Assembly: GCA_947626535.1 (NCBI GenBank)
Contig: CANQSO010000001.1
Span: 1 to 63,321, forward strand
Source: an uncultured Bacilli bacterium
GTDB taxonomy: Bacteria; Bacillota_I; Bacilli_A; RF39; UBA660
Direction of reading: 5' to 3'
DNA length: 63,321 nucleotides
Below, piece by piece: positions 4,257 to 57,069 of the stretch; the first letter of the stretch is position 1, and the number at the start of each line of letters is the position of its first letter. The translations under genes were made by a program, and so were the position numbers. A model generated the notes under the pieces. That model was given only the letters and a program-made list of their open reading frames with translations, did not search any database and had not been told where the DNA came from.

Positions 4257-5452
4257 TTATCAAATTTTTCTATTCTTTTTATATTTATGCCCACTACTAA
4301 TATAGATAATGTAAGCAATACCATAACTATATTTAATATTAATTGACTACTACTTATACCAACAAATAAAAGCATTAAATATCCTACAATTCTACCACAA
4401 TTTAATATACCTTCTCTAATTGCAAAGAATTCAATTTGATTACTATTATCTACAATATAACTATCTGATATATTAAATAATCTTATTTCTCTTGTTATTG
4501 TAAGTAGTGAAGTAAAAATAACATAGCAAATATTATAAATAATTATAGTTATATTATTTTTTAGAAGTAGAAGTAATAAAACTGATAAAATTGGTAAAAT
4601 GCTAGATATAAGAATTACTATTTTATCATCTTTATTTTTATAAATTTTTCCATATAAGTGAACAAATATCATTGATAAAATTGTTGCTATTGAAGTAATA
4701 ATTCCAAGATTTAAATTTGTTTTAAATGAATTAAATATCAATATTGTCATTAATATTTCTAAAGCTCCATCGCTTACATTCATACCTATAAAGAATTCTA
4801 CAATAGATATTTTCTTTATTTGCTCGTTATTCTTTAATTTGTTCCATGTGTTTTTTAAATTAAATTTATGCAAAATATTTTCTTGTTCTGGAGTTAATAA
4901 AAACGAAAGTAAAATTTGACCTAACGATATAAATAAAATAATAATTGCCGTTAATTCATAATTAGTAGCAGTTATTATTGATCCTAATAATACAGGACAT
5001 AATACTCCAATAATTGATGAAACAATTTTAGATTTAACTGTGTATTCAGTTCTATAATTATTTTCAATTTTATTAATTACGAATAAATTATATGGAAACC
5101 AATATACACTAGAAGATATTCCATATAAAACTGATATTAATACTAAATGATTTACAATATTTTCTTTTAAAATAATGATTGTTAATATATAAAAGAAATT
5201 TAATATTACACCAATTCTAAACATACCTATTCTAAATTTATTTTTTATTATACTTGCTACTATAAAACTTCCAACTGCAAGCAATATATATGAAAATATA
5301 TAATATATGGATAAATCAACAATACTTTCCTGTGAAATTTTAATAAAATAAGCTGTTAAAAATGGTCCTAAAAATAGTACCATTATTTTTTTCATAGCAT
5401 CTATTGCTATAATTATATTACTCTCTATTTTTTTGTTTTTCATAACTATCAC
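4253..5452 (-). CDS. Multi-pass membrane transporter, MFS-like
   Basis: 399 aa, about 12 hydrophobic segments, convergent with and overlapping the LysR stop. Confidence 0.6.
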   Translation of the reverse strand: MIVMKNKKIESNIIIAIDAMKKIMVLFLGPFLTAYFIKISQESIVDLSIYYIFSYILLAVGSFIVASIIKNKFRIGMFRIGVILNFFYILTIIILKENIVNHLVLISVLYGISSSVYWFPYNLFVINKIENNYRTEYTVKSKIVSSIIGVLCPVLLGSIITATNYELTAIIILFISLGQILLSFLLTPEQENILHKFNLKNTWNKLKNNEQIKKISIVEFFIGMNVSDGALEILMTILIFNSFKTNLNLGIITSIATILSMIFVHLYGKIYKNKDDKIVILISSILPILSVLLLLLLKNNITIIIYNICYVIFTSLLTITREIRLFNISDSYIVDNSNQIEFFAIREGILNCGRIVGYLMLLFVGISSSQLILNIVMVLLTLSILVVGINIKRIEKFDN

Positions 5453-6169: not shown

Positions 6170-6545
6170 ACCTCTTTCTTGTTGATTAATTTAAATATTA
6201 ACTCATATATTATTATATCATCACACAATATTTTATTAAATAGAAATCATCATTGAGATAAAATCTTAAAAAACCTAGTTTAATTTTTACATTTATATCA
6301 ATTTGAAATTCCATATTTAAATAAAAACTTTTTTAATAATTTCTTTTGATTATTTCTATAAATTGTTCTATTTAATTTATTATCTATATCCATTAATAAA
6401 TTATTTATTGATTCTAAATTCACTGCAAATTTAATAAATTTTTCTTACTGATTTTGAACTTATTCTTAATATCATATTCTAAAAACTTTGCTTTACATTA
6501 TATAAAAAAATGTATATACTATGTTTAGGGAGAGGAGTTTGTAAT

Positions 6546-7208
6546 ATGTTAAAAAATAGATATTATCGATTAAGTTTAAATGATGATAAGGGAAAAAACT
6601 ATTTATTAAGAGTAAAAAAAGATTTCTATACGGAGGGTATTAGTATAGATGAAGATAAATTATTACAAGGTTATTTTTATTTTAAAGATTATATGAGTTT
6701 AAGCATTTTGGATAATAATGATTTAGAAGCTAAAATTTGGGAACATAAGGGGATTGTTGGCTCTATTGAAGAAGGAGTTGCTTATGGGGGGTTAGATGAA
6801 GAATTTATTTCCTATAAATGTTCAAGTAAAATTGATGTTAATCTAGAAGAGATTACTGATAAAGAATTAATTGGTAAAATAGATTTCTTAATTAGGAGTT
6901 CTATTAGAAATTTAAGTCCAAATAATAGACAAATTTATGATTTTTTCAATCAAAGAAGAAAACAATATTTTCAAGAGTTTAAATCAGATATTACATCGCC
7001 CATTTATAATGTTGATGGAACAGAATATATTGAGATTGATGATCCCGAACTTGATTTTACACGTGAAGATTTAAAAGAAATTGGGCAATATTTACAAAGC
7101 CTTAATCAAAAACAAATAGTTAATGGAAGAGATGAAAATGGAAAGAAAATAAGAAAAAGAGCCATTAAAAATAAAAATAAGCCAAAAATGTTAATTAAAA
7201 ATAAATAA
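6546..7208 (+). CDS. Hypothetical protein, paralogue of 14452-15087
   Basis: Start refined to MLKNRYY (RBS GGGAGAGGAG). Long stretches are identical to 14452-15087 (e.g. DKELIGKIDFLIRSSIRNLSPNNRQIYDFFNQRRK). Confidence 0.7.
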   Translation: MLKNRYYRLSLNDDKGKNYLLRVKKDFYTEGISIDEDKLLQGYFYFKDYMSLSILDNNDLEAKIWEHKGIVGSIEEGVAYGGLDEEFISYKCSSKIDVNLEEITDKELIGKIDFLIRSSIRNLSPNNRQIYDFFNQRRKQYFQEFKSDITSPIYNVDGTEYIEIDDPELDFTREDLKEIGQYLQSLNQKQIVNGRDENGKKIRKRAIKNKNKPKMLIKNK

Positions 7209-7220
7209 TGAAAGAAAGTA

Positions 7221-7264
7221 AGTAAGATAAGAAAATAATAAGGAGTTTTTTTATCTTACTTTTA
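7221..7264 (+). terminator. Hairpin terminator after 6546-7208
   Basis: AGTAAGATAA(7221-7230)/TTATCTTACT(7251-7260) followed by Ts. Confidence 0.5.
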
Positions 7265-7316
7265 GTTAGTATAGATAAAATTTTTAGTTAGATTAAAATT
7301 TTTAGTTAGATTAAAA
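7260..7316. repeat. Tandem direct repeats immediately upstream of a promoter
   Basis: TTTTTAGTTAGATTAAAA occurs at 7281-7298 and 7299-7316, with a degenerate copy at 7260-7280. TTAGATTAAAA recurs at 8602-8612 before the next TTGACA. Confidence 0.6.
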
Positions 7317-7319
7317 TGG

Positions 7320-7347
7320 TTGACAAAAAAATATTTTTCTATATAAT
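7320..7347 (+). promoter_or_regulatory. Sigma-A-type promoter for repeat-protein gene 1
   Basis: TTGACA(7320-7325)-16 nt-TATAAT(7342-7347). The downstream leader ATGACAyAAkTTGAAAGG is conserved. Confidence 0.5.
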
Positions 7348-7377
7348 ATGACATAAGTTGAAAGGAATGGGAATTTT

Positions 7378-8598
7378 ATGAATAAAAATATTAAAAAAAT
7401 AATAGGAGAAGATTTTAACAAATTTTTAAAATTGGTAGAATTAGGAATTATCGATAAAGAAACGGTGACAAAAGCTATTATAAATAGTAATTCTGCTAAT
7501 CTTATTTATGAATTTGCTAAAGGAGTAAAAGGTGTAGATATAGAAAAATTACAAGATGCAATTATAAAAACACAAGATGCTTATTCTATATATGGCTTTG
7601 CTAAAGATATAGAGGGAGCAAATATAGAGAAATTAACGGATGCGATTACTAAAACTCAAAATGGCCTTTGGATTTATTACTTTACAAGAGGTATAAAAGG
7701 AGCCAATATAGATAAATTAACGTATGCAATAATTGCATCACAAAGTGTTCAATATATTTATGAATTTGCTAGAGATGTAAAAGGAGCAAATATAGAAAGA
7801 TTAACAGATGCTATTATAAAAAATCCAGTTAAAGAAAATGCAAGTTTAATTTATGAATTTGCTATGTATGTAAAAGGAGCAGATATAGAGAAATTGCAAA
7901 ATGCAATAATTGCAACACAAAATGCAGAGTACATTTATGAATTTGCTAGAGATGTAAAAGGAGCAAATATAGATAAATTGACAGATGGAATAGTTGCTAC
8001 TAAAGATGCAAGATGGATATATGAATTTGCTATATGTATGAAAGGTGCCAATATAGCAAAATTAACAGATGCAATAGTTACAACAAAAAATGCTCAATAT
8101 ATATATTATTTTGCTAGTATGATAAAAAGTGCCGATGCAGATAAATTGACAGATGCAATAGCTGCAACTAGAAATGCAGAATATATTTATTACTTTGCTA
8201 AAAATATAGATAGTGCCAATATAGATAAATTAACGGATGCGATTACTAAAACTCAAGATGCCAAATATATTTATGAATTCGCTAAAGGCGTAAAAGGAGC
8301 AAATATAGAGAAACTAGCAGATGGAATTATGGCAACACAAAACGAAGAACTTATTCTTCTCTTTACTGAATGCATAAAGGGTACAAATACAGAAAAATTA
8401 AAAAATGCGATAGTTGAAACTAAAGATGAAAATTATGCTAATTCAGAAGATGGAACATTATCAGTATTAATGGAATTGTTAAAAGAAAAGAAATTTGAAG
8501 ATATTTTGGACAATAAAGAAAAATTTTCTAATTTATTTGTTGATAAAGAACAAGTTGCTAGTAAAGAACAACAAAAAATGTTAATTAAAAGTAAATAA
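7378..8598 (+). CDS. 28-residue tandem-repeat protein (11 units), family not recognised
   Basis: Units such as IYEFAKGVKGVDIEKLQDAIIKTQDAYS. N-terminal cap FLKLVELGIIDKE and a C-terminal tail ending KEQQKMLIKSK. No signal peptide. Confidence 0.85.
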   Translation: MNKNIKKIIGEDFNKFLKLVELGIIDKETVTKAIINSNSANLIYEFAKGVKGVDIEKLQDAIIKTQDAYSIYGFAKDIEGANIEKLTDAITKTQNGLWIYYFTRGIKGANIDKLTYAIIASQSVQYIYEFARDVKGANIERLTDAIIKNPVKENASLIYEFAMYVKGADIEKLQNAIIATQNAEYIYEFARDVKGANIDKLTDGIVATKDARWIYEFAICMKGANIAKLTDAIVTTKNAQYIYYFASMIKSADADKLTDAIAATRNAEYIYYFAKNIDSANIDKLTDAITKTQDAKYIYEFAKGVKGANIEKLADGIMATQNEELILLFTECIKGTNTEKLKNAIVETKDENYANSEDGTLSVLMELLKEKKFEDILDNKEKFSNLFVDKEQVASKEQQKMLIKSK

Positions 8599-8615
8599 TT
8601 ATTAGATTAAAAAAA

Positions 8616-8644
8616 TTGACAAATAAAATTTTTTGTTATATAAC
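8616..8644 (+). promoter_or_regulatory. Sigma-A-type promoter for repeat-protein gene 2
   Basis: TTGACA(8616-8621)-17 nt-TATAAC, followed by the same conserved leader. Confidence 0.5.
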
Positions 8645-8673
8645 ATGACACAATTTGAAAGGGGAAATATTTC

Positions 8674-10083
8674 ATGAATAAAAATATTGAAGAATTATTT
8701 TCAGAAAAACGTTTTCATCCATTTTTAAAGCTAGTAGAGTTAGGGATTATTGACAAGGAAGTAGGAACAAAGGCAATCATAAGTACCAAAGTGCCTAAAT
8801 ATATTTTTGAATTTGCCAAAAATATAGAAGGAGCCGATATAGAAAAGTTAGAAGATGCCATTATAAAAACTAAAGATGTTCATTATATCTATTGGTTTGC
8901 GAAAGATGTAAAAGATGCTAATATAGAAAAGTTAGAAGATGCCATTATAAAAAGCAAAAATGGTTATGAAATCTATTGGTTTGCGAAAGATATAGAGGGA
9001 GCAAATATAGATAAATTAACAGATGGAATAATGAAGACTGATTGGGTAGCACATATTTATGAATTTGCTAGAGATATAAAAGGAGCCAATATAGATAAAC
9101 TACAAGATGCTATTATAAAAAATCCAACAAAAGAAAATGCAGAATATATTTATAATTTTACTAATTTAAAAAAAGGATTAGATATAGAAAAATTTCAAAA
9201 AGCAATAATTGCAACAAAAAATGCTCAATATATATATTATTTTGCCAGATTTAAGGAAGGAGCAGATATAGAAAAATTACAAGATACAATAGTTGCTATT
9301 GGAAATGCACAATATATTTATGAATTTGCCAAAGACGTAAAAGGTGCTAATATAGAAAAATTAGAAGATGCAATAATTGTAACAAAAAATGCAGAATATA
9401 TTTATGAATTTGCTAGAGATGTAAAAGGTGTCAATATAGCGAAATTAGAAGATGCCATTATAAAAAGTTCAAGAGGAGAAAAAGAAAAATATATTTATAA
9501 TTTTGCTAAAAACATAGAGGGAGCAAATATAGATAAATTAACAGATGCAATTATAAAAACAAAAGATACTTATTATATTCACAAATTTGCAGAAAATATA
9601 AAAGGTGTCAATATAGCAAAACTAACAAAGGGAATAATTGCAACAAAAGATGCACCTGGTATATATGACTTTGCTAAAAATATAGAGGGTGCCGATATAG
9701 AAAAACTAACAAAGGGAATCATTGCAACACAAGATGCATTTTGGATGTGTGACTTTGCAAAAATAGCTAAAGGAGCAGATATAGATAAATTGGCAGATGC
9801 AATTATAGAAACTAAAAGTTTGCATAAGATGTATGAATTTGCAAAGTGTATAAAAGGCATAAGTGCAGAAAAGAAAGACACAATAATGAAAATAGTTTCA
9901 TATAATGATAGACGTTATGGCGCTAATGAAGAAGCTAGAACTTTATGGTTATTATTATGGTTAGTAGATCATAAAGATTTTAAAACAATTTTGGACAATA
10001 AAGAAGAATTTTCTAATTTATTTGTTGATAAAGAGCAAGAAGTTAGTAAAGAACAACAAAAAATGTTAATCAAAAGTAAATAA
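8674..10083 (+). CDS. 28-residue tandem-repeat protein (13 units)
   Basis: Same unit and the same N and C caps as 7378-8598 and 17433-18839. Confidence 0.85.
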   Translation: MNKNIEELFSEKRFHPFLKLVELGIIDKEVGTKAIISTKVPKYIFEFAKNIEGADIEKLEDAIIKTKDVHYIYWFAKDVKDANIEKLEDAIIKSKNGYEIYWFAKDIEGANIDKLTDGIMKTDWVAHIYEFARDIKGANIDKLQDAIIKNPTKENAEYIYNFTNLKKGLDIEKFQKAIIATKNAQYIYYFARFKEGADIEKLQDTIVAIGNAQYIYEFAKDVKGANIEKLEDAIIVTKNAEYIYEFARDVKGVNIAKLEDAIIKSSRGEKEKYIYNFAKNIEGANIDKLTDAIIKTKDTYYIHKFAENIKGVNIAKLTKGIIATKDAPGIYDFAKNIEGADIEKLTKGIIATQDAFWMCDFAKIAKGADIDKLADAIIETKSLHKMYEFAKCIKGISAEKKDTIMKIVSYNDRRYGANEEARTLWLLLWLVDHKDFKTILDNKEEFSNLFVDKEQEVSKEQQKMLIKSK

Positions 10084-10144
10084 TTAGAATGAGTAACAAG
10101 AAAACTATTGTTACAAGAAAACTATTGTTTTCTTGTTTTACTGT

Positions 10145-10428
10145 TTTCTGGTAGTTCTAGGAGAAGACAAATGTTAGATGAAGTATTGCAAAGGAATAAT
10201 ATAAAGCTTAATCCTACTCATCTAATGCCGGATTCAAAACTAATGGCAGATTATATAAAAGAAAATGATTATATTGGTTATTTTATTGAAGACGAAATTA
10301 AAGAATATGATTTAATGAAAATTAATCTAAAGGAAGAAATGCCTATTAATCCTATTGGAATTATCTACTCTAAAAAGTCAATTAATCATATTGCTCGTGA
10401 TTTTGTAAATACGATAACTAAAAACTAA
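10145..10428 (+). pseudogene. 3' fragment of a LysR gene, duplicate of 3973-4256
   Basis: 10145-10412 appears identical to 3973-4240, and the last 16 nt have 3 mismatches. There is no N-terminal HTH and no RBS. The ORF-track 10108 start is an artefact. Confidence 0.85.
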
Positions 10429-10487
10429 AAATTAAATAATTATATTATTAAGATTTATGCTACAATACTTGATGGGAGGTTTAATAT

Positions 10488-11102
10488 ATGGATTTTAGTA
10501 AAGAAATAGTTAGAGAAATGGCAGGAATGGGAGGTACATTCCTTTATGGTAATGTAGTAGGTAATGTTTCCCCCGACATTGAATGGATAAAATGGTTGTC
10601 TTATGAGCCAGAGTTTGAGAAAAAAAGAATAGAATATTTAGATTCTAAAAAGGTATCAGAATTATCTTATGAAGAACTTAATGAAGCAAGTATATATAGT
10701 AGAAACAAAATGTTTGCAAAATTATTTAAAGCATATGGGACAAAAGAATGTTCTGAAGAAGATTATATAAAAGTATATAACTTTATGTGTGAAGAGTCTA
10801 TTGAAAAATTGATGCTTAGTAAATTAACAGTTGAAGAATTACAATATGCAAAGCAAGAAATAACTAGATTACTTGATATTCCTAAAGAACAACTATGTGC
10901 TAAAGTACAAGAAGAACAAAGGCCAGAGAAATATGAGAAACTATCAATGGTAGATTCTTATATACTACACATTATGTCTAATGTAGATTATGCTAGAGCA
11001 AGGTCTGATTTAGATAGAAAAATTGGGAAACAATTAGAGCAAAACGATGTTGTGATACGTAAAAGTTTATGTTATGCAAATAATTCATATATGAACTTAT
11101 AA
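10488..11102 (+). CDS. Hypothetical protein upstream of the membrane-anchored repeat protein
   Basis: 204-aa ORF with RBS GGGAGG. Its stop lies 17 nt before the next gene's start. Confidence 0.65.
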   Translation: MDFSKEIVREMAGMGGTFLYGNVVGNVSPDIEWIKWLSYEPEFEKKRIEYLDSKKVSELSYEELNEASIYSRNKMFAKLFKAYGTKECSEEDYIKVYNFMCEESIEKLMLSKLTVEELQYAKQEITRLLDIPKEQLCAKVQEEQRPEKYEKLSMVDSYILHIMSNVDYARARSDLDRKIGKQLEQNDVVIRKSLCYANNSYMNL

Positions 11103-11119
11103 TTTTAGGAGGTTTACAG

Positions 11120-13501
11120 GTGAATAAACAAGATTTGAAAAATCTAAAAAAAGCATTAATTGAAAAATATAAAAACAATTCTTCAGAAATTGATGTTTTA
11201 GATAATAAGATAAATATTTTAGATGTAAATAGTTATGATAAAAAATTGAATGATTTTTTAACTTGGGCAGGAATTCCGTGTGTTTTCAATGTGATATTAT
11301 TACCTAATATAATTAATATTAGTACACTTCCATTAAATTTACTACAAGCTTTAAATGTTAGTGTGCCTATACTAATTGGAATAGTTGGGGAAAAATTATC
11401 ATGGAAAAAGATAAATGAAGAAATGAAAAAAGTTTCAAGTTCTAAAACTTATAAGCAGAGAATAGAAGAGTTGACAAGATGTGAAATAGATAGAGATAAA
11501 CTTCTACTTTTAAATGAGGATTTAAGTTTTCAAAATTTTTTAATTGAAGAAAAACTAATAGATGATGATAAAGACATAATTGAAAAAAATGATATTGATT
11601 ATGTGGAAACACAAAATAATATTCAAAAAATAGAGGAAAACATTGAAAAAAAAGAAAAAGAAATAAACGAAACATTAACTAAAGATATTTTAACTTCAAA
11701 CTTTAACAAATATAGAGGTACAAAAGAAGAAGCAATTATTTCAAGTATTTTTGGTGGTATATGTTTATATGCAGCGTGCAATATTCATCTTGTTTCAAGA
11801 GTGTATAATGGAAAAATAAATAATCCTTTTGAAATAGCATTACCTTTTATAATTGGTGCATTATCTTGTGGAGCTTATTCTATGAAAGAAATTAAGGATA
11901 ATTTGGATATATTTAATAAAATTAATGATGAACTTGGTGATAGTAAATTGCCAAAATATAGTAAAGAAGATAAAAAATATACAGAAGATTATCGCTATTA
12001 TTTAAGACTTAAAATGGCCGAATTACGTGAACTTAGAACAAGTTTAGCTCGAGAACAATATAAATTACTAGATTTAGATAGCCAACAGGATAGTCAAAAT
12101 CGAAAATTAGAAGAACAAGATAAAAACAATCATATAAACAAATTTATAAAAGAATTAGAAGCAATCAAAGAAGAACATGGAGATAGTTTAGTAATTGAAA
12201 GATTTGAACAAAAAGCATTACAAGAAAAAAATCCAGTCTTAAGTTGGTTTTTTGCTACTAAAATTAAAGGAGCAGATATAAAAGCCCACGAGCAAGTAAT
12301 CATTGATAGTAAAGATCCAAAATATAATTATAAGTTTGCTTGTGATGTTAAAGGAGCAGATGTAAGAGCTCATGGACAAGTAATTATCGATAGTAAAGAT
12401 TTACTTTATAATTATTATTATGCTTTTGATGTTAAAGGAGCAGATATAAAAGCCCACGAACAAGTAGTCATTGATAGTAAAGATCCAGAATATAATTATT
12501 ATTTTGCTCATAATTTTGAAGGAGCAGATATAAAAGCTCACGAACAAGTAGTCATTGATAGTAAAGATCCAAAATATAATTATTGGTTTGCTCGTAAAAT
12601 TAAAGGAGCAGATGTAAAAACCCACGAACAAGTAGTCATTGATAGTAAAGATCCAGAATATAATTATTATTTTGCTCATAATTTTGAAGGAGCAGATGTA
12701 AAAACCCACGAACAAGTAGTCATTGATAGTAAAGATCCAAAATATAATTATTATTTTGCTGATAAAATTGAAAGAGCAGATATAAAAGCCCACGAACAAG
12801 TAGTCATTGATAGTAAAGATCCAGAATATAATTATTATTTTGTTCGTGATGTTAAAGGAGCAGATGTAAGAGCTCACGAACAAGTAATCATCGATAGCAA
12901 AGATCTAAAATATAATTATTTATATGCTCTTAAAGTTAAAGGAGCAGATGTAAGAGCTCATGGACAAGTAATCATCGATAGCAAAGATCTAGAATATAAT
13001 TATTGGTTTGCTCGTAAAATTAAAGGAGCAGATATAAAAGCCCACGAACAAGTAGTCATTGATAGTAAAGATCCAGAATATAATTATAAGTTTGCTCGTG
13101 ATATTGAAGGAGCAGATGTAAGAGCTCATGGACAAGTAATTATCGATAGTAAAGATTTACTTTATAATTATGATTATGCTTGCGATATTGAAGGAGCAGA
13201 TGTAAGAGCTCATGGACAAGTAATCATCGATAGCAAAGATCCAGAATGTAATTATTGTTATGCTTATAATGTTAAAGGAGCAGATATAAAAGCTCACGAA
13301 CAAGTAGTCATTGATAGTAAAGATCTAGAATATAATTATTGGTTTGCTCGTAAAATTAAAGGAGCAGATATAAAAGCCCACGAACAAGTAGTCATTGATA
13401 GTAAAGATCCAGAATATAATTATAAGTTTGCTCGTGATATTGAAGGAGCAGACGTAAAAGCCAACGAACAAGTAAAAATTTTAACGAAAGAAAAAAAATA
13501 A
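11120..13501 (+). CDS. Membrane-anchored coiled-coil protein with 15 C-terminal 28-residue repeats (variant subfamily)
   Basis: GTG start after AGGAGG. Hydrophobic segments (e.g. PCVFNVILLPNIINI, ISSIFGGICLYAACNIHLV, ALPFIIGALSCGAYS) and Lys/Glu-rich coiled-coil-like regions. The unit YNYxFAxxxxGADIKAHEQVVIDSKDPx is repeated 15 times up to the stop. Confidence 0.85.
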   Translation: MNKQDLKNLKKALIEKYKNNSSEIDVLDNKINILDVNSYDKKLNDFLTWAGIPCVFNVILLPNIINISTLPLNLLQALNVSVPILIGIVGEKLSWKKINEEMKKVSSSKTYKQRIEELTRCEIDRDKLLLLNEDLSFQNFLIEEKLIDDDKDIIEKNDIDYVETQNNIQKIEENIEKKEKEINETLTKDILTSNFNKYRGTKEEAIISSIFGGICLYAACNIHLVSRVYNGKINNPFEIALPFIIGALSCGAYSMKEIKDNLDIFNKINDELGDSKLPKYSKEDKKYTEDYRYYLRLKMAELRELRTSLAREQYKLLDLDSQQDSQNRKLEEQDKNNHINKFIKELEAIKEEHGDSLVIERFEQKALQEKNPVLSWFFATKIKGADIKAHEQVIIDSKDPKYNYKFACDVKGADVRAHGQVIIDSKDLLYNYYYAFDVKGADIKAHEQVVIDSKDPEYNYYFAHNFEGADIKAHEQVVIDSKDPKYNYWFARKIKGADVKTHEQVVIDSKDPEYNYYFAHNFEGADVKTHEQVVIDSKDPKYNYYFADKIERADIKAHEQVVIDSKDPEYNYYFVRDVKGADVRAHEQVIIDSKDLKYNYLYALKVKGADVRAHGQVIIDSKDLEYNYWFARKIKGADIKAHEQVVIDSKDPEYNYKFARDIEGADVRAHGQVIIDSKDLLYNYDYACDIEGADVRAHGQVIIDSKDPECNYCYAYNVKGADIKAHEQVVIDSKDLEYNYWFARKIKGADIKAHEQVVIDSKDPEYNYKFARDIEGADVKANEQVKILTKEKK
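12239..13498 (+). repeat. 15 tandem 84-bp in-frame coding repeats
   Basis: Period of 84 nt, with higher-order identity at offsets of 168 and 336 nt (12986-13116 equals 13322-13452). Confidence 0.9.
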
Positions 13502-13564
13502 AAAAGTTAATCTAAAAAATTGGAAAAGAAGTAAAATTAATTTTTTAATTGTTCATAACTATGA

Positions 13565-13604
13565 AAAAGACAATTCTAGAATTATCTAACTAGATTGTCT
13601 TTTT
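13565..13604. terminator. Bidirectional terminator between convergent genes
   Basis: AAAAGACAATTCTAG / CTAGATTGTCTTTT, flanked by A and T runs. Confidence 0.6.
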
Positions 13605-13606
13605 AA

Positions 13607-14257
13607 TTACATATGTTTACCTTTACTTTCACCTATTTCATTATTAATAGCATAATTTGAAACCGCTCTAAAATTTTCGTCATAAGGGTAAACTTGTTGA
13701 CCAAATTGAAGCCACATCGTTGACCAAGAAGAACCTGTTTTAAGCAATTCTTGAACTCTTGCATTATTCATTGTAGGATTATCTTCTTGTTTATCTAAAT
13801 CAACACAACCTTCTTCATCATACAATTTACTTTGTAGATCACATTCTAATTTATCACACTGATAAGCAAACATTGATTCTTTTGTATTATGTGCATCAAA
13901 TTCCAAAAATAATTCTTCAATTTGATTACCATCTAATAAACCATTTAATATTCTATGTACTGCTTCGTGTTCCATTTTTTCTTTTTCTTCTTTTGATATT
14001 TGAAATTGAGTTAAATCACCAATGACAGTCTCACCAAGTTCGTGAACTGCTAGCATATATATAACTTTCATAATATCAACATCATATTTATACTCTGATT
14101 TCATAGCAATTGCTAACATTTGAACTCCAAAAATATGTTCAGCAACACTCTCAATTCTTTCTCTTTGAACATTCCAATTTTTCCAACCTGTTCTTATAAC
14201 ATTTTTTAATCTATTACATATAACATAATAATTTATTACATTTTGTTCTTTTGACAT
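13607..14257 (-). CDS. HD-superfamily phosphohydrolase, YfbR/HDDC2-like 5'-deoxynucleotidase type
   Basis: Start refined to MSKEQNV (RBS AAGAGG). Contains SVAEHIFGVQMLA and LAVHELGETVIGDL, so the metal motif reads HE rather than HD. Confidence 0.7.
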   Translation of the reverse strand: MSKEQNVINYYVICNRLKNVIRTGWKNWNVQRERIESVAEHIFGVQMLAIAMKSEYKYDVDIMKVIYMLAVHELGETVIGDLTQFQISKEEKEKMEHEAVHRILNGLLDGNQIEELFLEFDAHNTKESMFAYQCDKLECDLQSKLYDEEGCVDLDKQEDNPTMNNARVQELLKTGSSWSTMWLQFGQQVYPYDENFRAVSNYAINNEIGESKGKHM

Positions 14258-14451
14258 AAAATTGCCTCTTTTCGATGAATTATTATAGTCTTTAATTTTA
14301 TATTTGTCAATAATATCAATTGTTTGTGACTTTAAGTTAAAATGTCCTAATAAAAACAAAATGATAATAAAATAAAAAAATCACAAGATTTGCTTTATTT
14401 TATATAAAAAATTGTATATAATATCAAGTAAATTAAAAAAGGAGTCCATAT

Positions 14452-15087
14452 ATGTTAAAAAATAGATATTATTGTTTAATCTTAAATGACGATATAGAAA
14501 AAAGATTTTTATTGAGAGTAAAAAAAGATTTTTATACAGAAGGTATCAGTGTAGATGAGGATAAGTTATTACAAGGGTATTTTTATTTTAACGGTTATAT
14601 TTGTTTAAATATTTTGGATAATAATGATTTAGAAGCTAAAATTTGGGAACATAAAGGAATTGTTGGCTCCATTGAGGATGGCGTTTCTCACGCGGCACTA
14701 GATGAAGAACTTGAGTCTTATGGACGTTCAAGTAAAATGAATGTCAAACTAGAAGAAATTACTGATAAAGAATTAATTGGCAAAATAGATTTTTTAATTA
14801 GGAGTTCTATTAGAAATTTAAGTCCAAATAATAGACAAATTTATGATTTTTTTAATCAAAGAAGAAAACACCATTTTCAAGAGTTTAAATCAGATATTAC
14901 ATCGCCTATTTATAATGTAGATGGCACGGCATATATTGAGATTGATGATCCCGAACTTGATTTTACACGTGAAGATTTAAAAGAAATTGGGCAATATTTA
15001 CAAAGTCTTAATCAAAAACAAATAGTTAATGGAAAAGATGAAAATGGAAAGAAAATAAGAAAAAGAACTCATAAAAAACAAAAGTAA
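14452..15087 (+). CDS. Hypothetical protein, paralogue of 6546-7208
   Basis: 211 aa with RBS AAGGAG. High identity to 6546-7208 but lacks its C-terminal KPKMLIKNK extension. Confidence 0.7.
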   Translation: MLKNRYYCLILNDDIEKRFLLRVKKDFYTEGISVDEDKLLQGYFYFNGYICLNILDNNDLEAKIWEHKGIVGSIEDGVSHAALDEELESYGRSSKMNVKLEEITDKELIGKIDFLIRSSIRNLSPNNRQIYDFFNQRRKHHFQEFKSDITSPIYNVDGTAYIEIDDPELDFTREDLKEIGQYLQSLNQKQIVNGKDENGKKIRKRTHKKQK

Positions 15088-15146
15088 TAAAAAAATACAA
15101 TTTAATAAAAAGCTGTAATTTGATAAGGAAGAGAGGCTAATAATTT

Positions 15147-16079
15147 ATGGAAACAGATCTATTAAAATATGTTAGAAGAATACTTGGAACACCTGATAAA
15201 AATTTAAATTTAAAAACTTCGATAGGAATAAAAGAAATGATAGAGTTACTTGACTTTATTGTAGAAAATAAGTTGGATTTAGAAAGTAAAAGTATGACCG
15301 TTGATATAAATGACAATAGATATGATATTATATTTTCATATCATACAAGTAGTAATAGTGATTTTACTTCTTCTGATAAATCTTGGTTTGTTTCTATTAA
15401 AATAATAGGTCAAAATAAAAGCATTGTTTTTAAAGAGTATAAAAATAAGAAAGAATGTTATAATCCAAAAAGTTTTGATTTTTCTAATATTGATAAAAAA
15501 TATACAATTATTGAGTCAATAGATGATTATGGTCAAGTTTATACAATGATAAATCAATGTGGAACTATTTATGATAAATATTATCATCCTAATTTTAATG
15601 AACTTATTCAAAATTATTCTTATATAGGTCAAGGCTTACATATTAGTGATAATTATTGGAGTGAAGAAAATGGTATTAAAGTAAGAAAAAAAGATGATGG
15701 TACGATAGAAATTGAAGACCATTCTTCATCTTTAGGTACTTTAAGCGAATATATCAAAAAAACGGGAGATAAATATATTACGATAATTAAAGATGGTGAA
15801 CAATATTATTATGATATAGATAGTCAAAAACTTTTAAATGAGAAAAAATCTGAAGAATTAAATATTCCTATACGTGATTACAATACTGACCATCCAGAAT
15901 ATACGCCTTATATAAAAAAGGATTCTAATTTTTGTAAAATAATTTCATTATTTTCAAGATTTGATAAAGAAGTAAAATTAACAAATTTTAATGATGATGA
16001 ATTAAGTGCTATTAAAGAGCAAATTAAAAACAATTTAGTTAAAAGTAAAGAAAAAGCTAAGTGTTATAAAAAAATATAA
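15147..16079 (+). CDS. Hypothetical protein
   Basis: 310-aa ORF with RBS GAGAGG. No motif recognised. Confidence 0.6.
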   Translation: METDLLKYVRRILGTPDKNLNLKTSIGIKEMIELLDFIVENKLDLESKSMTVDINDNRYDIIFSYHTSSNSDFTSSDKSWFVSIKIIGQNKSIVFKEYKNKKECYNPKSFDFSNIDKKYTIIESIDDYGQVYTMINQCGTIYDKYYHPNFNELIQNYSYIGQGLHISDNYWSEENGIKVRKKDDGTIEIEDHSSSLGTLSEYIKKTGDKYITIIKDGEQYYYDIDSQKLLNEKKSEELNIPIRDYNTDHPEYTPYIKKDSNFCKIISLFSRFDKEVKLTNFNDDELSAIKEQIKNNLVKSKEKAKCYKKI

Positions 16080-16285
16080 AAATCATAAGAAAATCCAAAA
16101 ATGTTTGTTAAAATGTAGGAATAAAAGAAAGTAACAAGAAAACTGCTTTATTGTTTTCTTTTAGTAGTTCAAATATGTATTCATTTACAAAATGTTTATA
16201 ATATGTTAATATATAACGAAAAAAACTTTGCTTAAAAATAAAAAATAATATTGTTTTTAATTAATGTATCGTGAGGTGAAAGAAT

Positions 16286-17329
16286 ATGGAAGCAAAATTA
16301 TTATATGATTTTGAAAAATATTTACAACTTAAACAAAATACTTGTGCTGCAAGAATATTTTTAAATGCTTTTAATCTTATATTAGAAGAAAATGTTGAAA
16401 ATATCGATCAATTTTCAAAGCTAAAAATTTTTGATTCTGATATGAATGAGGTTGGAAAATTATATTTTAAGAATGGAAAAGTTTTTATATCTGCAAACTT
16501 TAATAATAATGTTTTAAATGCAGAATTTAACATTGCCAAAATATATGGCTATTATGCTATTCTTGAAGACAATATTCAAGGAAATTGGAATAATGATATT
16601 GATTTTCAGTTACAACAATCAAATGGTATAAAGCTTTCAGGGCAATTTGAAATAAGAGCAGCTTTAGATAGTGAGTATGGAATTCATTGTAATTGTCATC
16701 CGTTAATAAAGTATGAAGTTGATGGTAAAGAAATGATGATATTAAAAATGTTTAGAGATGGTAGTGAACTTAATCTTCAAATAATGAAAGACAATTATAA
16801 AGAAAAAATAGATATATGTTCTTGGGATAAAAATCGTTATCTATATCACGAAATAATAAAAGGTGAATATGATAGACAAAAATTAGGAAATCCATTTTCT
16901 AGATATGTTTTAGTAAAAGAAGCAGAAGATGAAAAAAATAAGGGAAAATTAGCATCGCTTTTAAGTGAATCAAATTATATTAGACCAGTGCTTTTTGAAA
17001 CAAATTATATTCCAAAAAATAGTAATAATTCTATTCAATTATCATTGCAAATTGGAAAATTAATGCGAGAGTTAGATCCAAGTATGTATGAAAGAATAAA
17101 AGAAACAAAAGAAATTCTAAAAATTGATAATAAATCTATATTTGACAATTTAGTTGGTATATGCTTTGAAAAATATACTAATGAGCAAGTAGAGGCATTG
17201 CTTGGAGTTACAAAAAATAAAATTTTATATCAAGATGGAAATGATACATTAGCAAATTCTTATTTTGGAATAAATAAAAGTGATTATTTTTTTCCTAAAG
17301 AAATGCAAAAAAAATTGGTAAAAAAATAA
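16286..17329 (+). CDS. Hypothetical protein
   Basis: 347-aa ORF with RBS GAGGTGA. No motif recognised. Confidence 0.6.
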   Translation: MEAKLLYDFEKYLQLKQNTCAARIFLNAFNLILEENVENIDQFSKLKIFDSDMNEVGKLYFKNGKVFISANFNNNVLNAEFNIAKIYGYYAILEDNIQGNWNNDIDFQLQQSNGIKLSGQFEIRAALDSEYGIHCNCHPLIKYEVDGKEMMILKMFRDGSELNLQIMKDNYKEKIDICSWDKNRYLYHEIIKGEYDRQKLGNPFSRYVLVKEAEDEKNKGKLASLLSESNYIRPVLFETNYIPKNSNNSIQLSLQIGKLMRELDPSMYERIKETKEILKIDNKSIFDNLVGICFEKYTNEQVEALLGVTKNKILYQDGNDTLANSYFGINKSDYFFPKEMQKKLVKK

Positions 17330-17432
17330 GAATAATATTAAAAAATGATTTAGAAAAATTTTTAATAAATTTTATGAGAAAAGAAAATGTTATGTTATAT
17401 AATATGACACAATTTGAAAGGAGAAACATTTC

Positions 17433-18839
17433 ATGAATAAAACTATTGAAAAATTACTAAAAGAAAGAGAATTTAATAAAATTTTAAAGCTAGTAGAATT
17501 GGGTATTATTGATAAAGAAATAGGAACAAAAGCAATAATAAGTACTAAAGAGCCTGAATATATTTATAGATTTGCGGCTTCCATAGAAGGTGCAGATATA
17601 GATAAATTACAAGATGCAATTATAGATGCAGGTATAAATGATGCTATATATATTTACTACTTTGCTAGAGATATAAAAGGTGCCAATATAGAAAAGTTAG
17701 AAGATGCAATGATAAAAATCGAAAACAGTCATCAAATTTACTATTTTGCTAGAGATATAAAAGGAGCAAATATAGATAAATTACAAGATGCAATAATGAA
17801 AATTAATTGGCCACCTATTATTTATAAATTTGCCGGGGATGTAAAAGGAGCAAATATAGATAAGTTACAAGATGCAATTATAAAAAATCCAACAAAAGAA
17901 AATGCAAAATATATTTATGAATTTGCTAATTTAAAAAAAGGATTAGATATAGAAAAATTACAAAAAGCAATAATTGCCACAAAAGACGCTCAATATATAT
18001 ATTATTTTGCTAGATTTCAGGAAGGAGCAGATATAGAAAAGTTAGAAGATGCAATAATTGCAACAAAAGCTGCTTATTATATTTGCGAATTTGCTAAAGA
18101 AATAGAGAAAGCAAATATTAAAAAGTTACAAGATGCAATTATTGCCACAAAAGATGCAGAATGCATTTACGAATTTGCTAAAGATATAGAAGGTGTTGAT
18201 ATTGATAAATTAATAGATGGAATTATTGCTACACAAGATGCACGATGGATATATGAATTTGCTAATGAAATAAAAGGTGCCAATTTAGGAAAACTAACAG
18301 ACGGAATTATTGCTACACAAGATGCTTATTATATTTGCGAATTTGCTAAAGAAATAGAGAATGCAAATATAGAAAAATTAGCAGACGGAATTATTGCAAC
18401 AAAAGATGCTCCTTATATTTGTGAATTTGCTAAAAATATAAATGGTGCTAATATAGAAAAACTAACAGATGGAATTATTGCTACACAAGATGCACGATGG
18501 ATATATGAATTTGCTAAAAATATAAAAGGTGTCAATATAGATAAATTAACAGATGGAATTATTGCAACAAAAAGCTATGATGTTATGCATGAATTTGCTA
18601 AGTGCATAAAAGGCATAAGTGCAGAAAAGAAAGATGCAATAATGAAGATTGTTGAAGTTAAAGATACAGATTATGGTGCTACTGATTATTCCAAAACTTT
18701 ATCGTTATTAAAATATTTACTAGATACGAAAGATTTTGAAACAATTTTGGACAATAAAGAGGAATTTTCTAAATTATTTGTTGATAAAGAGCAAGAAGTT
18801 AGTAAAGAACAACAAAAAATGTTAATCAAAAGTAAATAA
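17433..18839 (+). CDS. 28-residue tandem-repeat protein (13 units)
   Basis: Same caps as 8674-10083, and its central units are nearly identical to that paralogue. Confidence 0.85.
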   Translation: MNKTIEKLLKEREFNKILKLVELGIIDKEIGTKAIISTKEPEYIYRFAASIEGADIDKLQDAIIDAGINDAIYIYYFARDIKGANIEKLEDAMIKIENSHQIYYFARDIKGANIDKLQDAIMKINWPPIIYKFAGDVKGANIDKLQDAIIKNPTKENAKYIYEFANLKKGLDIEKLQKAIIATKDAQYIYYFARFQEGADIEKLEDAIIATKAAYYICEFAKEIEKANIKKLQDAIIATKDAECIYEFAKDIEGVDIDKLIDGIIATQDARWIYEFANEIKGANLGKLTDGIIATQDAYYICEFAKEIENANIEKLADGIIATKDAPYICEFAKNINGANIEKLTDGIIATQDARWIYEFAKNIKGVNIDKLTDGIIATKSYDVMHEFAKCIKGISAEKKDAIMKIVEVKDTDYGATDYSKTLSLLKYLLDTKDFETILDNKEEFSKLFVDKEQEVSKEQQKMLIKSK

Positions 18840-18953
18840 TTAGAATGAGTAACAAGAAAACAACAGTTTTCTTGTTTTACTGTTTGGTTATTTTGACTTT
18901 ATAAATTATTTATGTTACAATATGTCAAAATAGTTTTAGGAGGGATAGGTTTT

Positions 18954-19778
18954 ATGAAAAAATTAGAAATATCAAAAGATAAGTTTGAAGAATTTGATAA
19001 TATTGATATGGGCTACCCAAAAATTGAAATAGTGTATGATTCTACTAAATATGAATTTGAATGTGTTTATGGCTTAAATAAAATTATTTTGAGAAGATTA
19101 AAAGATGGAAAAATTATTCATATATTTGATACCAAGATAACATTTATAGTAGAGTGTGATAAAAATAATAGAGCAAACTTTATGGTCGGTGAATGTTCAG
19201 GTGAATTTCGTAATAATAAATTAAAGCATTATATTGACAAAGGCAAAGAAAATTTAGAATTAGAAAGCACATTAGATATAAGCAGTGAGTGTAGTCTTGA
19301 CCAATGTCAAATTACAAATAATTCTTTTGCTTTCGTAAAGAAAAATAGTCAATGTTATAGTGCCTACAATAGTATTTACACACTTGATGGACGTATAAAA
19401 TCTTTCAAAAAAATATATAATGATAAGCGAATTCAAATGAAATTTAAGGAGCCAACAATATTAGTTGAGCAAGAATATGGAAAATCTTATTATGATAGTG
19501 TTAGTGATAGAGTTTTCTATGGTGTTAATCCGGAAACATTAGAAATTAATACTCCTATTTGGAGTGAGCTTCAACAACGATTAATACCTATCTACACTGA
19601 AGAAGATATAAAAAATAAAAACATTATAGATCCTATAGGTTTAGGAGAAACAACTCTTTATTGTGAAGTAAAAAAGCCTTTAGATGAAATAGCTAGATAT
19701 TTAACTCCATCTAAAGAAGTTTATACAGACAAAAGTGAAATTAATGATGAATTTATAAGACAATTTGTTAAAAAATAA
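18954..19778 (+). CDS. Hypothetical protein
   Basis: Start refined to MKKLEIS (RBS AGGAGGG). Shares an (W/Y)SELQQ(R/K) motif with 20308-21162. Confidence 0.6.
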   Translation: MKKLEISKDKFEEFDNIDMGYPKIEIVYDSTKYEFECVYGLNKIILRRLKDGKIIHIFDTKITFIVECDKNNRANFMVGECSGEFRNNKLKHYIDKGKENLELESTLDISSECSLDQCQITNNSFAFVKKNSQCYSAYNSIYTLDGRIKSFKKIYNDKRIQMKFKEPTILVEQEYGKSYYDSVSDRVFYGVNPETLEINTPIWSELQQRLIPIYTEEDIKNKNIIDPIGLGETTLYCEVKKPLDEIARYLTPSKEVYTDKSEINDEFIRQFVKK

Positions 19779-19825
19779 TTAAAACAATATTTCACAAAGT
19801 TTAAATAAAATTAAAGGGGTAATAA

Positions 19826-20206
19826 ATGAAAAGAGTATTAATTATAGGCGATAGTGAATTTATAAGTAATATGCTAAAAAGATTAAGTTCAAATGAAATA
19901 GATATTTTAAGTGTTCCATCAGTAGAAGAAGCAATGAAAGTTTTGACTAAAAATGATATAAATATAGTAGTTTTGAACTTAAAATCATCATTAGAAAATA
20001 TGAAAAAAATAGCCAATAAAATACAAGCAAAATATAATATATCTACTATAATATTTGAATCTGTTCACGAGCCAAGCTTCGAGCATATTAATTTAGACTT
20101 TGATTTACTTAATGAAGAGTTTAAACGTGATAATATGAGAAGAAGTAATTATAATTCAAAACGTAAATATAAAGTAAAACACAAAGTTAAACGTAATAAA
20201 AATTAA
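19826..20206 (+). CDS. Receiver (CheY)-like domain protein lacking the phospho-acceptor Asp, with a basic tail
   Basis: KRVLIIGDSEF...INIVVLNLKS has the REC-like beta-alpha pattern, with N where D57 is expected. C-terminus is RRSNYNSKRKYKVKHKVKRNKN. Confidence 0.45.
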   Translation: MKRVLIIGDSEFISNMLKRLSSNEIDILSVPSVEEAMKVLTKNDINIVVLNLKSSLENMKKIANKIQAKYNISTIIFESVHEPSFEHINLDFDLLNEEFKRDNMRRSNYNSKRKYKVKHKVKRNKN

Positions 20207-20307
20207 ATATTTATAAATAGTTTATAATATAACTAATTTCTAATAATTATAGTGCAAATGAAATCATAAAATATTTTAAAATAACTTTTAGAAAAGAGGA
20301 GAAAAGA

Positions 20308-21162
20308 ATGATAATATTAAGAGATATAAAAGATATTCCAGAATATAGAGGAAGACCTATTAAAATAGGTGAGTTTTATAGACCACCTATAGATGAAAAA
20401 CCTCATAAATTTTATGAATATAATAAAGAATTAAGCTCTAAGGTTAATGGATACAGAAAAGGCCCTAAAAATCCGTATCTTGATTATTTGTTAGGTGATT
20501 GTCAAGAATTAAGTGATGTAAATATTAAGGGTTTGCCATTTGAAAATATGAAAATGGGCAAATTCATAATTTATGAAGATGAAGATAAGAAAATTTTTAT
20601 TTACAATAAATTACATAATAAGTTATCTTCTATAGAAGTATGCAATAGAGCCGAAATAAATAAAATAAAGCAAACAGATTTAGGAGAATTGCTATTTTTT
20701 ACAAATGATGAAACTAAATTAACTCATTACTATTTTGAAGACAGTGATGATGAAGTGAGAATAGATACTATTTATAGCGAATTACCATTAGAGGAAATCT
20801 TACCAGATATATATTTGTCATCTAGTGAAGATGATAATCATTATTTACTATATAATGTAATAAGCAAAAATAGTTTAGAAATTCAAAATGATGAAATTAT
20901 GGTTTTAGATAATAAGCTTTTATTAGCTAGAACTATTGAAGAGGGAAATTTTAAAGATATTATCTATAAGATTATTGATAAATATAATTTAGAATGTGTA
21001 AATATTTATAGTGAGTTACAACAAAAAATGTTACTTGGAGAAAATTTTCCTTTAACAAGTGAAGAGGAAAAAGAATTAATAGAGAATAAAGTTGTTAAAT
21101 ATCTTAAAATGTTAAATGAAACAACATCAATAGAGCGTAAAAAAATTTTAGAAAAAAAGTAG
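20308..21162 (+). CDS. Hypothetical protein
   Basis: 284-aa ORF with RBS AGAGGAG. Confidence 0.6.
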   Translation: MIILRDIKDIPEYRGRPIKIGEFYRPPIDEKPHKFYEYNKELSSKVNGYRKGPKNPYLDYLLGDCQELSDVNIKGLPFENMKMGKFIIYEDEDKKIFIYNKLHNKLSSIEVCNRAEINKIKQTDLGELLFFTNDETKLTHYYFEDSDDEVRIDTIYSELPLEEILPDIYLSSSEDDNHYLLYNVISKNSLEIQNDEIMVLDNKLLLARTIEEGNFKDIIYKIIDKYNLECVNIYSELQQKMLLGENFPLTSEEEKELIENKVVKYLKMLNETTSIERKKILEKK

Positions 21163-21293
21163 TATTTCAAAATTACCACAAAGATTATATTAAAATTTTA
21201 ATTATTTTTTCTTAAGCCAAAGCAGTGTGTTCAAATCACATCGAGGACGTCATTAGTAAATTTGTTTTAAATTTATGCTTTTTTGGAGGAATT

Positions 21294-25511: not shown

Positions 25512-25634
25512 ATGAAGATATTATCTTTAATAGTTATTTCACTAGTAACATTGCTAGTGATTTTTTTATTTTGTGCTTGTTTTATTTCAAGCAATTTTGA
25601 ATTAGAGGAGGAATTAGAAAATGAAAAAAAATAA
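25512..25634 (+). CDS. Possible 40-aa hydrophobic peptide
   Basis: MKILSLIVISLVTLLVIFLFCACFISSNFELEEELENEKK, preceded by GGAGGAA. Overlaps the adhesin start. Confidence 0.3.
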   Translation: MKILSLIVISLVTLLVIFLFCACFISSNFELEEELENEKK

Positions 25635-29749: not shown

Positions 29750-29751
29750 TT

Positions 29752-53641: not shown

Positions 53642-53655
53642 CGGAGGAATTAGTT

Positions 53656-57005: not shown

Positions 57006-57040
57006 ATAAAAATTCCCCACTTACTTTGCTTGTAACCAAC

Positions 57041-57069
57041 AATATACCAAGTATTTGTTGCTGTGTCAA
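57041..57069 (-). promoter_or_regulatory. Promoter of the ORF6N gene (minus strand)
   Basis: TTGACA(57069-57064)-17 nt-TATATT(57046-57041). Confidence 0.5.

Follow-up and report, generated by a model that had tools for sequence, protein, structure and literature searches.

What are the four long arrays of a 28-residue repeat that are encoded close to a conjugation module in an uncultured gut bacterium, and are they cargo of that mobile element, modular readers of nucleic acids or something else? The question is raised by four genes, here designated A, B, C and D, in a stretch of 63,321 nucleotides (the window, contig CANQSO010000001.1) from an uncultured Bacilli bacterium. We propose, giving the proposal as a whole an even chance, that their products are cytoplasmic, chromosomally encoded alpha-solenoids of an undescribed family that would act as protein- or peptide-binding scaffolds or adaptors; binding, the topology of the gene C product and recombination within the arrays are the parts of this proposal that we infer.

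Gene A (7378-8598; 406 amino acids, aa) comprises 11 units, gene B (8674-10083; 469 aa) 13 units, gene C (11120-13501; 793 aa) 15 units and gene D (17433-18839; 468 aa) 13 units, all on the plus strand. Coordinates and unit counts are exactly those of a preliminary description made from the letters alone, and register-anchored extraction on the FA...G motif recovered the total of 52 in-register units. Independently of motif anchoring, Tandem Repeats Finder detected 84-bp periodic arrays in all four genes, that of gene C with 14.6 copies and 84% match. The unit spacing is 28 aa except for a few units of 30-31 aa, and an 'NPxKEN' insert is found in unit 4 of A, B and D alike. The recomputed consensus is IYEFAKDIKGANIEKLTDAIIATKDAEY for the soluble-type units of A, B and D and (Y)NYYFARKIKGADVKAHEQVVIDSKDPE for the membrane-type units of gene C, in agreement with the two consensus sequences read earlier by eye. 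According to the residues at unit positions 1 and 16, the arrays of A, B and D are wholly of an Ile1/Leu16 type and that of gene C is wholly of an Asn1/His16 type. In gene A the N-cap is followed by the 11 units, a flexible linker, a small helical C-module and the basic tail KMLIKSK; in gene B the 13 units stand between the N-cap and a C-module with a basic tail. A, B and D have in common the N-cap LKLVELGIIDKE and a C-terminal module that ends in KEQQKMLIKSK, as had been noticed before. With a pI of 5.0-6.4 and a net charge of -2 to -23, the proteins range from acidic to neutral, A, B and D contain no hydrophobic segment (maximum Kyte-Doolittle value over 19 residues, KD19, ≤1.02), and the earlier remark that none of the four carries a signal peptide was borne out. 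The absence of signal peptides and the topology of the transmembrane hairpins of gene C described below are the basis for placing these proteins in the cytoplasm. Open reading frames (ORFs) on the minus strand inside the arrays (9579-9881, 100 aa; 12401-12883, 160 aa) are themselves periodic and are by-products of the repeats, not genes.

The AlphaFold2 model of gene B, built on a 50-sequence alignment, is a regular alpha-solenoid (mean predicted local distance difference test score, pLDDT, 90; predicted template modelling score, pTM, 0.76) with 28 regular helices of 9-11 residues across the 13 units, which agrees with the helix-turn-helix solenoid guessed at in the preliminary description. 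Each unit is laid out as helix A (positions 26-7), a conserved loop (8-12) reading 'xKGAN/D', helix B (13-22) and a turn (23-25) reading 'TKD'; the array is followed by a disordered linker (aa 409-419) and then by the small helical C-module. The hydrophobic periodicity of the Ile/Leu type is 100 degrees. On this prediction the array would belong to the alpha-solenoid class of ARM/HEAT-like proteins. Following this, we propose that the two-helix units of 28 residues stack into an elongated rod with a fixed hydrophobic core made up by positions 1, 2, 4, 5, 8, 11, 13, 16, 19-21 and 28 and with two variable exposed faces, and that the rod, by analogy with other ARM/HEAT-like solenoids, may serve as a scaffold or adaptor joining or localising its partners.

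The two-helix units, elongated solenoid, hydrophobic core and exposed binding faces are shared with HEAT_PBS and with the ARM/HEAT class represented by importin-alpha and beta-catenin, and HEAT_PBS units have a similar length of about 27-31 aa. By contrast, the present family has its own motif (IYxFA...KGAN/DIxKLxxAII.TKD), its own caps and its basic tail, and it lacks a sequence-profile match to that class: HEAT_PBS (PF03130), HEAT and Arm were unmatched at E≤1 in the four proteins and at E≤0.01 in 100 diverse family members. Foldseek comparison of the gene B model with the Protein Data Bank (PDB) returned only generic solenoids, i.e., designed helical repeats, karyopherin-alpha, beta-catenin and HEAT proteins, with probabilities up to 1.0 but template modelling scores (TM) of only 0.1-0.26, so that the superhelical geometry differs. 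In BFVD the best match, and the best structural match of gene B anywhere, was A0A6J5RY29, an uncharacterised protein of 246 aa from an uncultured member of the Caudovirales (Foldseek E 3.3e-7, target TM 0.56, root-mean-square deviation 6.6 A over 238 columns, 26% identity); below it came generic matches to LRV, Sel1, ankyrin and DUF4116 proteins. A0A6J5RY29 may be a true member of the family; it differs in being shorter than B and in being the sole viral case among all searches. LRV and DUF4116 repeats are likewise short and helical, have an unknown or structural role and occur in bacteria, giant viruses and protists. LRV units, however, have about 24 aa with alternating alpha and 3-10 helices, as opposed to 28 aa with two alpha helices here, and the LRV (PF01816) and DUF4116 (PF13475) hidden Markov models (HMMs) were unmatched in about 110 members at E≤0.01 (E≤1 for the four proteins of the window). 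An LRV-named phage protein ranked second in BFVD with a TM of 0.2 and a DUF4116 protein ranked 44th with a TM of 0.32-0.39. The resemblance to DUF4116 repeats suggested earlier is thus reasonable by eye and amounts to a weak likeness of fold, the DUF4116 profile itself being unmatched.

The earlier statement that the family could not be named stands: no curated match was found in Pfam, NCBIfam, PHROGs, PADLOC or the PDB, and the profile-HMM searches gave no confident match to any characterised family. For the four proteins nothing exceeded the cut-offs of Pfam and NCBIfam, PADLOC gave zero matches, PHROGs gave only sub-significant matches to families of unknown function, and the PDB gave none by sequence and none by profile even at E≤10; a Pfam scan of 100 diverse members detected no recurrent repeat family. 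Sub-threshold matches to OHA, SH3_6, YerC and NQRA_SLBB span 15-50 residues of the repeat motif and were rejected as spurious. In the case of the TrpR-related YerC/YecD model (TIGR02531), the score of 36.3 bits lies below the cut-off of 42.2, covers profile positions 2-53 of a domain of ~88 aa and stems from the repeat motif, and the TrpR-like PDB entry 3kor was matched at E=0.39. Relatives are named only 'hypothetical protein', with the exception of one 'YerC' in a JGI record, a name that is probably spurious for the same reason. A word-indexed search found 548 relatives, while an exhaustive HMMER search against 1.84 billion representatives found 1,276 at E≤1e-3 and 654 at E≤1e-10, which puts the family at about 1,300 clusters at 50% identity, almost all of them unnamed and from metagenome-assembled genomes (MAGs) of gut Bacilli. 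Relatives in reference genomes, searched with an idealised 5-unit consensus of 140 aa, belonged to MAGs of uncultured gut bacteria from rabbit, human and Hadza samples, with the labels Bacilli, Tenericutes or Clostridia, and a pattern scan of metagenomes gave 3 loci only. The repeat is an undescribed family of the alpha-solenoid kind.

The distribution of variability within the unit bears on what the arrays might recognise. Among the positions listed in the preliminary description as almost invariant, F4, A5, K15, L16 and I20 were indeed near-invariant, whereas D18 and A19 showed an entropy of about 1.3 bits and 4-6 residue types. The positions listed as hypervariable, 27, 7, 28, 3 and 6, were high in entropy over the 37 soluble units, but 17, 24, 25, 26 and 22 were comparably high; in the units of gene C the peaks at 3 and 6, followed by 7, 8, 27, 20 and 26, were found as well, whereas position 28 was not variable there. 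Over all 52 units the variation was uneven rather than spread evenly. The units of gene C share 71-100% DNA identity, and nonsynonymous differences among them peak at codons 3 and 6 (proportion of nonsynonymous differences, pN, 0.56-0.57) on a near-invariant background. On the model of B, one face of helix A is made up of positions 27, 28, 3, 6 and 7, and one face of helix B of positions 14, 17, 18, 21 and 22. Across the family, in 388 distinct units from 178 proteins and with a harvest that favours well-matching units, the mean entropy of the two faces was equal (2.43 and 2.41 bits), position 28 was Tyr in 97% and position 3 was the most variable. The suggestion of a few hypervariable positions as in TALE, PUF and PPR proteins is not supported by these values. 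For the most part the variability follows the contrast between buried and exposed positions that is general for amphipathic solenoids, and it does not amount to a small recognition code. Mutagenesis by a diversity-generating retroelement was dropped as an explanation, the variation not being restricted to adenine-templated codons; no reverse transcriptase was present among that part of the ORFs which was scanned against Pfam.

Programmable nucleic-acid binders, in which each unit would read one base via two or three residues, are accordingly an explanation to which we assign very little probability. Like TALE, PUF and PPR proteins, with units of 34, 36 and 35 aa, respectively, the present proteins consist of tandem modular helical units (11-15 per array) with a fixed scaffold and some positions varying between units, and the variation between local paralogues is found at few helix positions. 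Their unit, however, has 28 aa, the proteins are not basic but acidic to neutral as given above, the variable positions hold 9-14 residue types including aromatics with no small recurrent or discrete code, and the TAL, PUF and PPR models of Pfam were unmatched; nor are the enzyme fusions and the membrane tethering described below suggestive of sequence-specific reading.

Comparison of the local paralogues assigns the divergence to one face in particular. B and D are the closest paralogues, with 70% amino acid identity and 80% nucleotide identity from promoter to terminator. Compared unit by unit, their ratio of nonsynonymous to synonymous divergence (dN/dS) was 1.09 on the helix-A face, 0.37 on the helix-B face, 0.50 in the loops and 0.09 in the core, and the excess of the A face over the B face was of modest significance (odds ratio 3.2, p=0.027). 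We propose that A, B and D, differing chiefly on the helix-A face, would probably bind different partners; the values give a hint, local to this genome and unproven, that the helix-A face is diversifying among its paralogues.

The core of the unit shows a further kind of variation. In 664 distinct units, positions 1 and 16 were the strongest coupled pair (corrected mutual information, MIp, 0.53): 450 units combined a hydrophobic residue at position 1 with Leu16 and 149 combined Asn or Ser at position 1 with His16, as compared to a single unit with a hydrophobic residue and His16. Positions 1 and 19 as well as 16 and 19 were also coupled, and as 16 and 19 are i/i+3, the coupling of all three fits the packing of helix A on helix B. 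Asp12 (74%) and Gly17 (40%) are overrepresented in units of the Asn/His type. In 22 proteins both unit types are mixed within one array, and the coupling held there unit by unit, with 35 Asn/Ser-His units, 27 Cys/Ile/Val-Leu/Met units and 3 exceptions, which argues for physical contact and not just lineage history.

Arrays of the Asn/His type, including that of gene C, are attached to a variety of other domains. The N-terminal part of gene C (11120-12238, plus strand, 373 aa) contains long helical, coiled-coil-like segments and four transmembrane segments paired as two hairpins at aa 46-90 and 204-255, and is followed by the array of 15 Asn1/His16-type units (12239-13501, plus strand). The same module would thereby be held at the cytoplasmic side of the membrane by the two hairpins and a helical stalk. 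In a related organism, the orthologue of this N-terminal part (P0250; L017 5556-6626 and L018 3522-4592; 69% identity) has no repeats and is preceded by the same MFS and HAD genes as gene C; at L018 the HD gene known from the window comes next as well (92.6% nucleotide identity), and no conjugative element is present. The absence of any array from P0250 indicates that the array of gene C is an add-on module, which, judged from sequence, was therefore either gained here or lost in the P0250 lineage. Elsewhere, arrays of the gene C type are fused to nucleoside diphosphate kinase (NDK) in at least 9 clusters, e.g., P0357 (L035 7001-8095), which has 7 units and a full NDK domain and is located between pnp and gpsA in the dnaG-sigA...rpsL-fusA-tuf core region, and to AAA_5 ATPases in at least 7 clusters, e.g., P0120 (L031 2782-4896), which heads an AAA_5/AAA/DUF2201 (VWA-like) cluster; two members have PcfJ-like domains instead. 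That the array is appended to unrelated enzymes and anchors, or stands alone between caps, is most simply explained by a protein-interaction or localisation module.

The arrays also differ in length between closely related sequences. A contig of the same strain (L019 370-2079) carries gene C with 7 instead of 15 units, in the order W1-W2-W12-W13-W14-(W4-like)-W15, between flanks that are 99.7-99.9% identical, and its junction lies where W2 and W11 have 57 identical nucleotides in common. In another sample of the same species (L021 3250-4404), gene D lacks exactly 3 units (10 as compared to 13) with a junction inside DGIIATQDARWIYEFA. Unequal recombination between similar units, by which arrays would lengthen and shorten, explains both variants as we read them.

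A number of these results weigh against the scaffold proposal or parts of it. On the helix-A face dN/dS does not exceed 1 significantly (p=0.83), relaxed constraint explains its divergence equally well, and in the family as a whole the two faces vary to the same extent. Over 13 loci, no recurrent partner gene was found beyond orthologous housekeeping synteny. Collapse during short-read assembly may account for the length variants instead of recombination: the variant contigs have coverages of 2.3x and 6.3x, and many contigs break at these genes. Moreover, the Asn/His type lacks a clear alpha periodicity, which is weaker than in the other type if Asn and His are treated as polar, and has Gly17 in 40% of its units, and the AlphaFold2 model of full-length gene C, built on a 4-sequence alignment, has a mean pLDDT of 56 and draws the array as three beta strands per unit.

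These last two points raise the alternative that the Asn1/His16 type differs from the other, either as a beta-solenoid or as an alpha-solenoid with an internal Asn-His(-Asp12) ladder binding metal ions or protons in each unit. Besides the three strands per unit, this would be favoured by a hydrophobic periodicity stronger at 160-180 degrees than at 100, by the frequencies of Gly17 and Asp12, and by the almost perfect flip of the core pair from hydrophobic to polar. Nevertheless, the shallow model was obtained from a near-perfect repeat input, for which spurious beta-solenoid models are in our judgement plausible; the pLDDT of the array swings between about 55 and 94 in it (m6758dfe90354), and its N-terminal part is of low confidence and not trusted. 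Both unit types are clearly homologous (cross E-values of 1e-35 to 1e-73), they must stack in a common fold in the 22 mixed arrays, and Pro26 after Asp25 as well as Asp/Asn12 fit helix N-caps. On account of this homology, the mixed arrays and the fit to helix caps, the model of B, with its deeper alignment, was weighted above that of C, and the beta model of gene C is probably an artefact of the shallow alignment. Chou-Fasman propensities showed no difference between the two types and do not separate alpha from beta. We regard a different structure of the Asn/His type as doubtful, if the least improbable of the alternatives considered here. Unlikely, too, is a more far-reaching idea that combines two parts: the Asn/His state of gene C and of the NDK- and AAA_5-fused arrays, as a ladder or beta-solenoid, would make a ligand- or pH-responsive rod regulating the attached enzyme or anchor, and, separately, the basic tail would be a new targeting signal.

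The tail itself is not a peculiarity of A, B and D. Defined as at least 4 Lys/Arg within the last 12 residues, and with the LysR fragment at 10108-10428 counted outside the block, it is present in 11 of the 13 full-length plus-strand ORFs of the 6510-21851 block as compared to 5 of 40 elsewhere in the window (Fisher p=3.5e-6, a value with fewer independent cases behind it because A, B and D are paralogues). A hydrophobic pair usually stands just before it, as in KMLIKSK, KILTKEKK, KKLVKK, KKILEKK and KILKKNKK, and the non-homologous ORF 6510-7208 ends in PKMLIKNK, near-identical to the tails of A, B and D. Family-wide, the last 12 residues contain 3.3 Lys/Arg on average as compared to 1.6 in internal 12-mers, 48% as compared to 5% reach at least 4, and basic residues alternate with hydrophobic ones also in the tails of members with dissimilar C-modules. 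The tail may bind membranes or polyanions, mediate docking or act as a signal for targeting. The Lys-rich tail pointed out in the preliminary description as a conceivable transfer or export signal is therefore real and conserved throughout the family, while nothing ties it to transfer.

The preliminary description had also placed the genes in a cargo-like region next to a conjugation module. The conjugation module begins with a SpaA/thioester adhesin gene (25621-28320) and includes VirB4 (34526-37033), VirD4 (43637-45613), a tyrosine integrase (53638-55431), an M23 peptidase and an SNF2 giant. About 220 bp past the integrase gene, a tRNA 3' fragment (GGCAGTTCAAATCTGCCCGGGAACACCA; T-arm, acceptor and CCA) at 55651-55678 is likely the right attachment (att) remnant of this integrative and conjugative element (ICE). 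On the assumption of cargo, the repeat proteins would be anti-defence or establishment proteins, or substrates of the type IV secretion system (T4SS) recognised by their basic tail. In keeping with this, the repeat genes lie within about 7-18 kb of the module (start near 25.6 kb, VirB4 at 34.5 kb), two distant relatives are fused to a PcfJ-like domain, which is named for a gene of the conjugative plasmid pCF10, and the tail is concentrated in the block and common in the family as described above.

However, the relatives do not travel with transfer genes. T4SS genes were absent from about 10 distinct neighbourhoods of relatives, most of them housekeeping, and the conjugation proteins of the window had no match in 11 related genome loci. 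P0030 is flanked by thioredoxin/CvpA and WhiA/ClpP genes; P0005 and P0065 occupy the identical slot in the order MreC - M23 - M50 - repeat - rplU - prp - rpmA, L004 and L011 have part of this neighbourhood as well, and P0108 is located among rpe, rsmE, fmt, def and priA. This survey does not support the idea that homologues always ride on ICEs. Gene C and the HD gene are syntenic with the ICE-free locus L018, and the block itself holds, besides HD, genes of the NUDIX and GFO/IDH types downstream of D. Neither 72,556 plasmids nor 50,697 phages (INPHARED) contained a match to the region (megablast) or to B (tblastn), a pattern scan of IMG/VR viral contigs found no family member, and PADLOC gave no match. 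As for the boundaries, only the right att remnant was located, and a position of the repeat genes between att sites together with co-occurrence was not found: no left att site could be located, k-mers common to candidate boundaries being at most 14 nt long and AT-rich; no second copy of the tRNA 3' fragment and no intact tRNA were found in the window, in which Rfam and tRNA scans gave nothing above cut-off. The cargo reading of the preliminary description is not supported by these findings, and we consider it improbable. Since relatives elsewhere do not travel with T4SS genes and C and HD have syntenic counterparts at an ICE-free locus, we conclude at the level of sequence comparison that the repeat genes are most likely chromosomal and merely adjacent to the ICE. 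In this view they would form a locally expanded family, carried chromosomally by a low-GC lineage of uncultured gut Bacilli.

A further alternative is that the proteins act in inter-bacterial or phage conflict as immunity or decoy proteins, diversifying as tandem paralogues that neutralise varied toxins or effectors. Tandem paralogue pairs are indeed common, being found in this window and in L003, L005, L006, L008 and L012, the helix-A face evolves fast between B and D, unit numbers vary between samples, and the local block is rich in lineage-specific orphan genes. Nevertheless, no toxin, LXG/WXG, Rhs or nuclease domain was found beside any member, PADLOC again contributed no match, and it would be atypical of such proteins to keep, as one subfamily does across several genomes, a conserved place between the M50 protease gene and rplU, or to be fused, as in another subfamily, to NDK within a cluster of core genes. 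Conflict proteins therefore appear unlikely to us, and the chromosomal scaffold or adaptor is preferred.

The organization of A, B and D is that of independent transcription units, as indicated by their own promoters and terminators. Gene A is preceded by a perfect sigma-70 type promoter on the plus strand (7320-7347; TTGACA-16-TATAAT, 12/12 match), and alignment of the three 5' flanks revealed promoter and ribosome-binding site (GAAAGGAG) blocks upstream of B and D that are homologous to those of A. Intrinsic terminators on the plus strand follow B (10113-10136) and D (18851-18876), with the same hairpin sequence recurring. The last 30 codons of A, B and D share 91-98% DNA identity, and synonymous divergence between B and D is 0.08 in these codons as compared to 0.3-0.47 in the repeats, which suggests either that gene conversion keeps the tail uniform or that its DNA sequence is itself under constraint. 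Directly upstream of the promoter of gene A, at 7266-7317, lies a tandem repeat with 2.9 copies of an 18-bp unit (TTAGTTAGATTAAAATTT), which could be an operator or UP-like element.

Several other features of the window and of related loci were noted. Two orphan paralogues without Pfam or PHROG match (6510-7208 and 14452-15087; 87% nucleotide identity) each lie upstream of repeat genes, in the orders P-A-B and P'-x-y-D, and the extended KMLIKNK tail is found only in the first copy (6510-7208). In a MAG from a Hadza gut sample (L012 4213-8239), paralogous proteins of 643 and 650 aa with N-terminal signal/anchor segments and no Pfam domain are encoded directly upstream of a tandem pair of repeat genes. 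Right after the terminator of B, at 10137-10460, 326 bp repeat the 3' end (3965-4290) of the intact LysR gene with 94.8% identity and yield a pseudo-ORF of 106 aa (10108-10428); this copy marks a rearrangement or insertion through which gene C became separated from the HAD gene by ORF 6510-7208, A and B. Several ICE proteins (28944-30913 and 45610-51930) have acidic '...E(R/M/L)ER' C-termini, e.g., EERER, SEMER, DELER and EKEMER, a C-terminal regularity distinct from that of the basic tails. A second mobile element on the minus strand (56115-62930) adjoins the first and includes an ORF6N-domain protein, a large serine recombinase (57265-58878) and a second VirD4-type coupling protein (59159-61189), which suggests that two integrated conjugative elements are arranged in tandem in the window.

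With the mobile-element and TALE-like readings unsupported, no new mechanism or long-standing question is opened by this locus at present, and its moderate interest rests on the core switch, the enzyme fusions, the basic tail and the abundance of the family in an unstudied gut lineage. The clean switch from Ile/Leu to Asn/His offers a tractable system for studying how far a solenoid core tolerates a polar ladder. The uncultured low-GC gut Bacilli concerned, which bear the labels Bacilli, Tenericutes or Firmicutes in MAG records, occur in abundance in the guts of animals and have hardly been studied at all, and the repeat is a lineage-specific building block of these bacteria for which there is neither a curated model nor a solved structure. 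Defining the family would lead to a Pfam-type model and would clear hundreds of 'hypothetical protein' labels.

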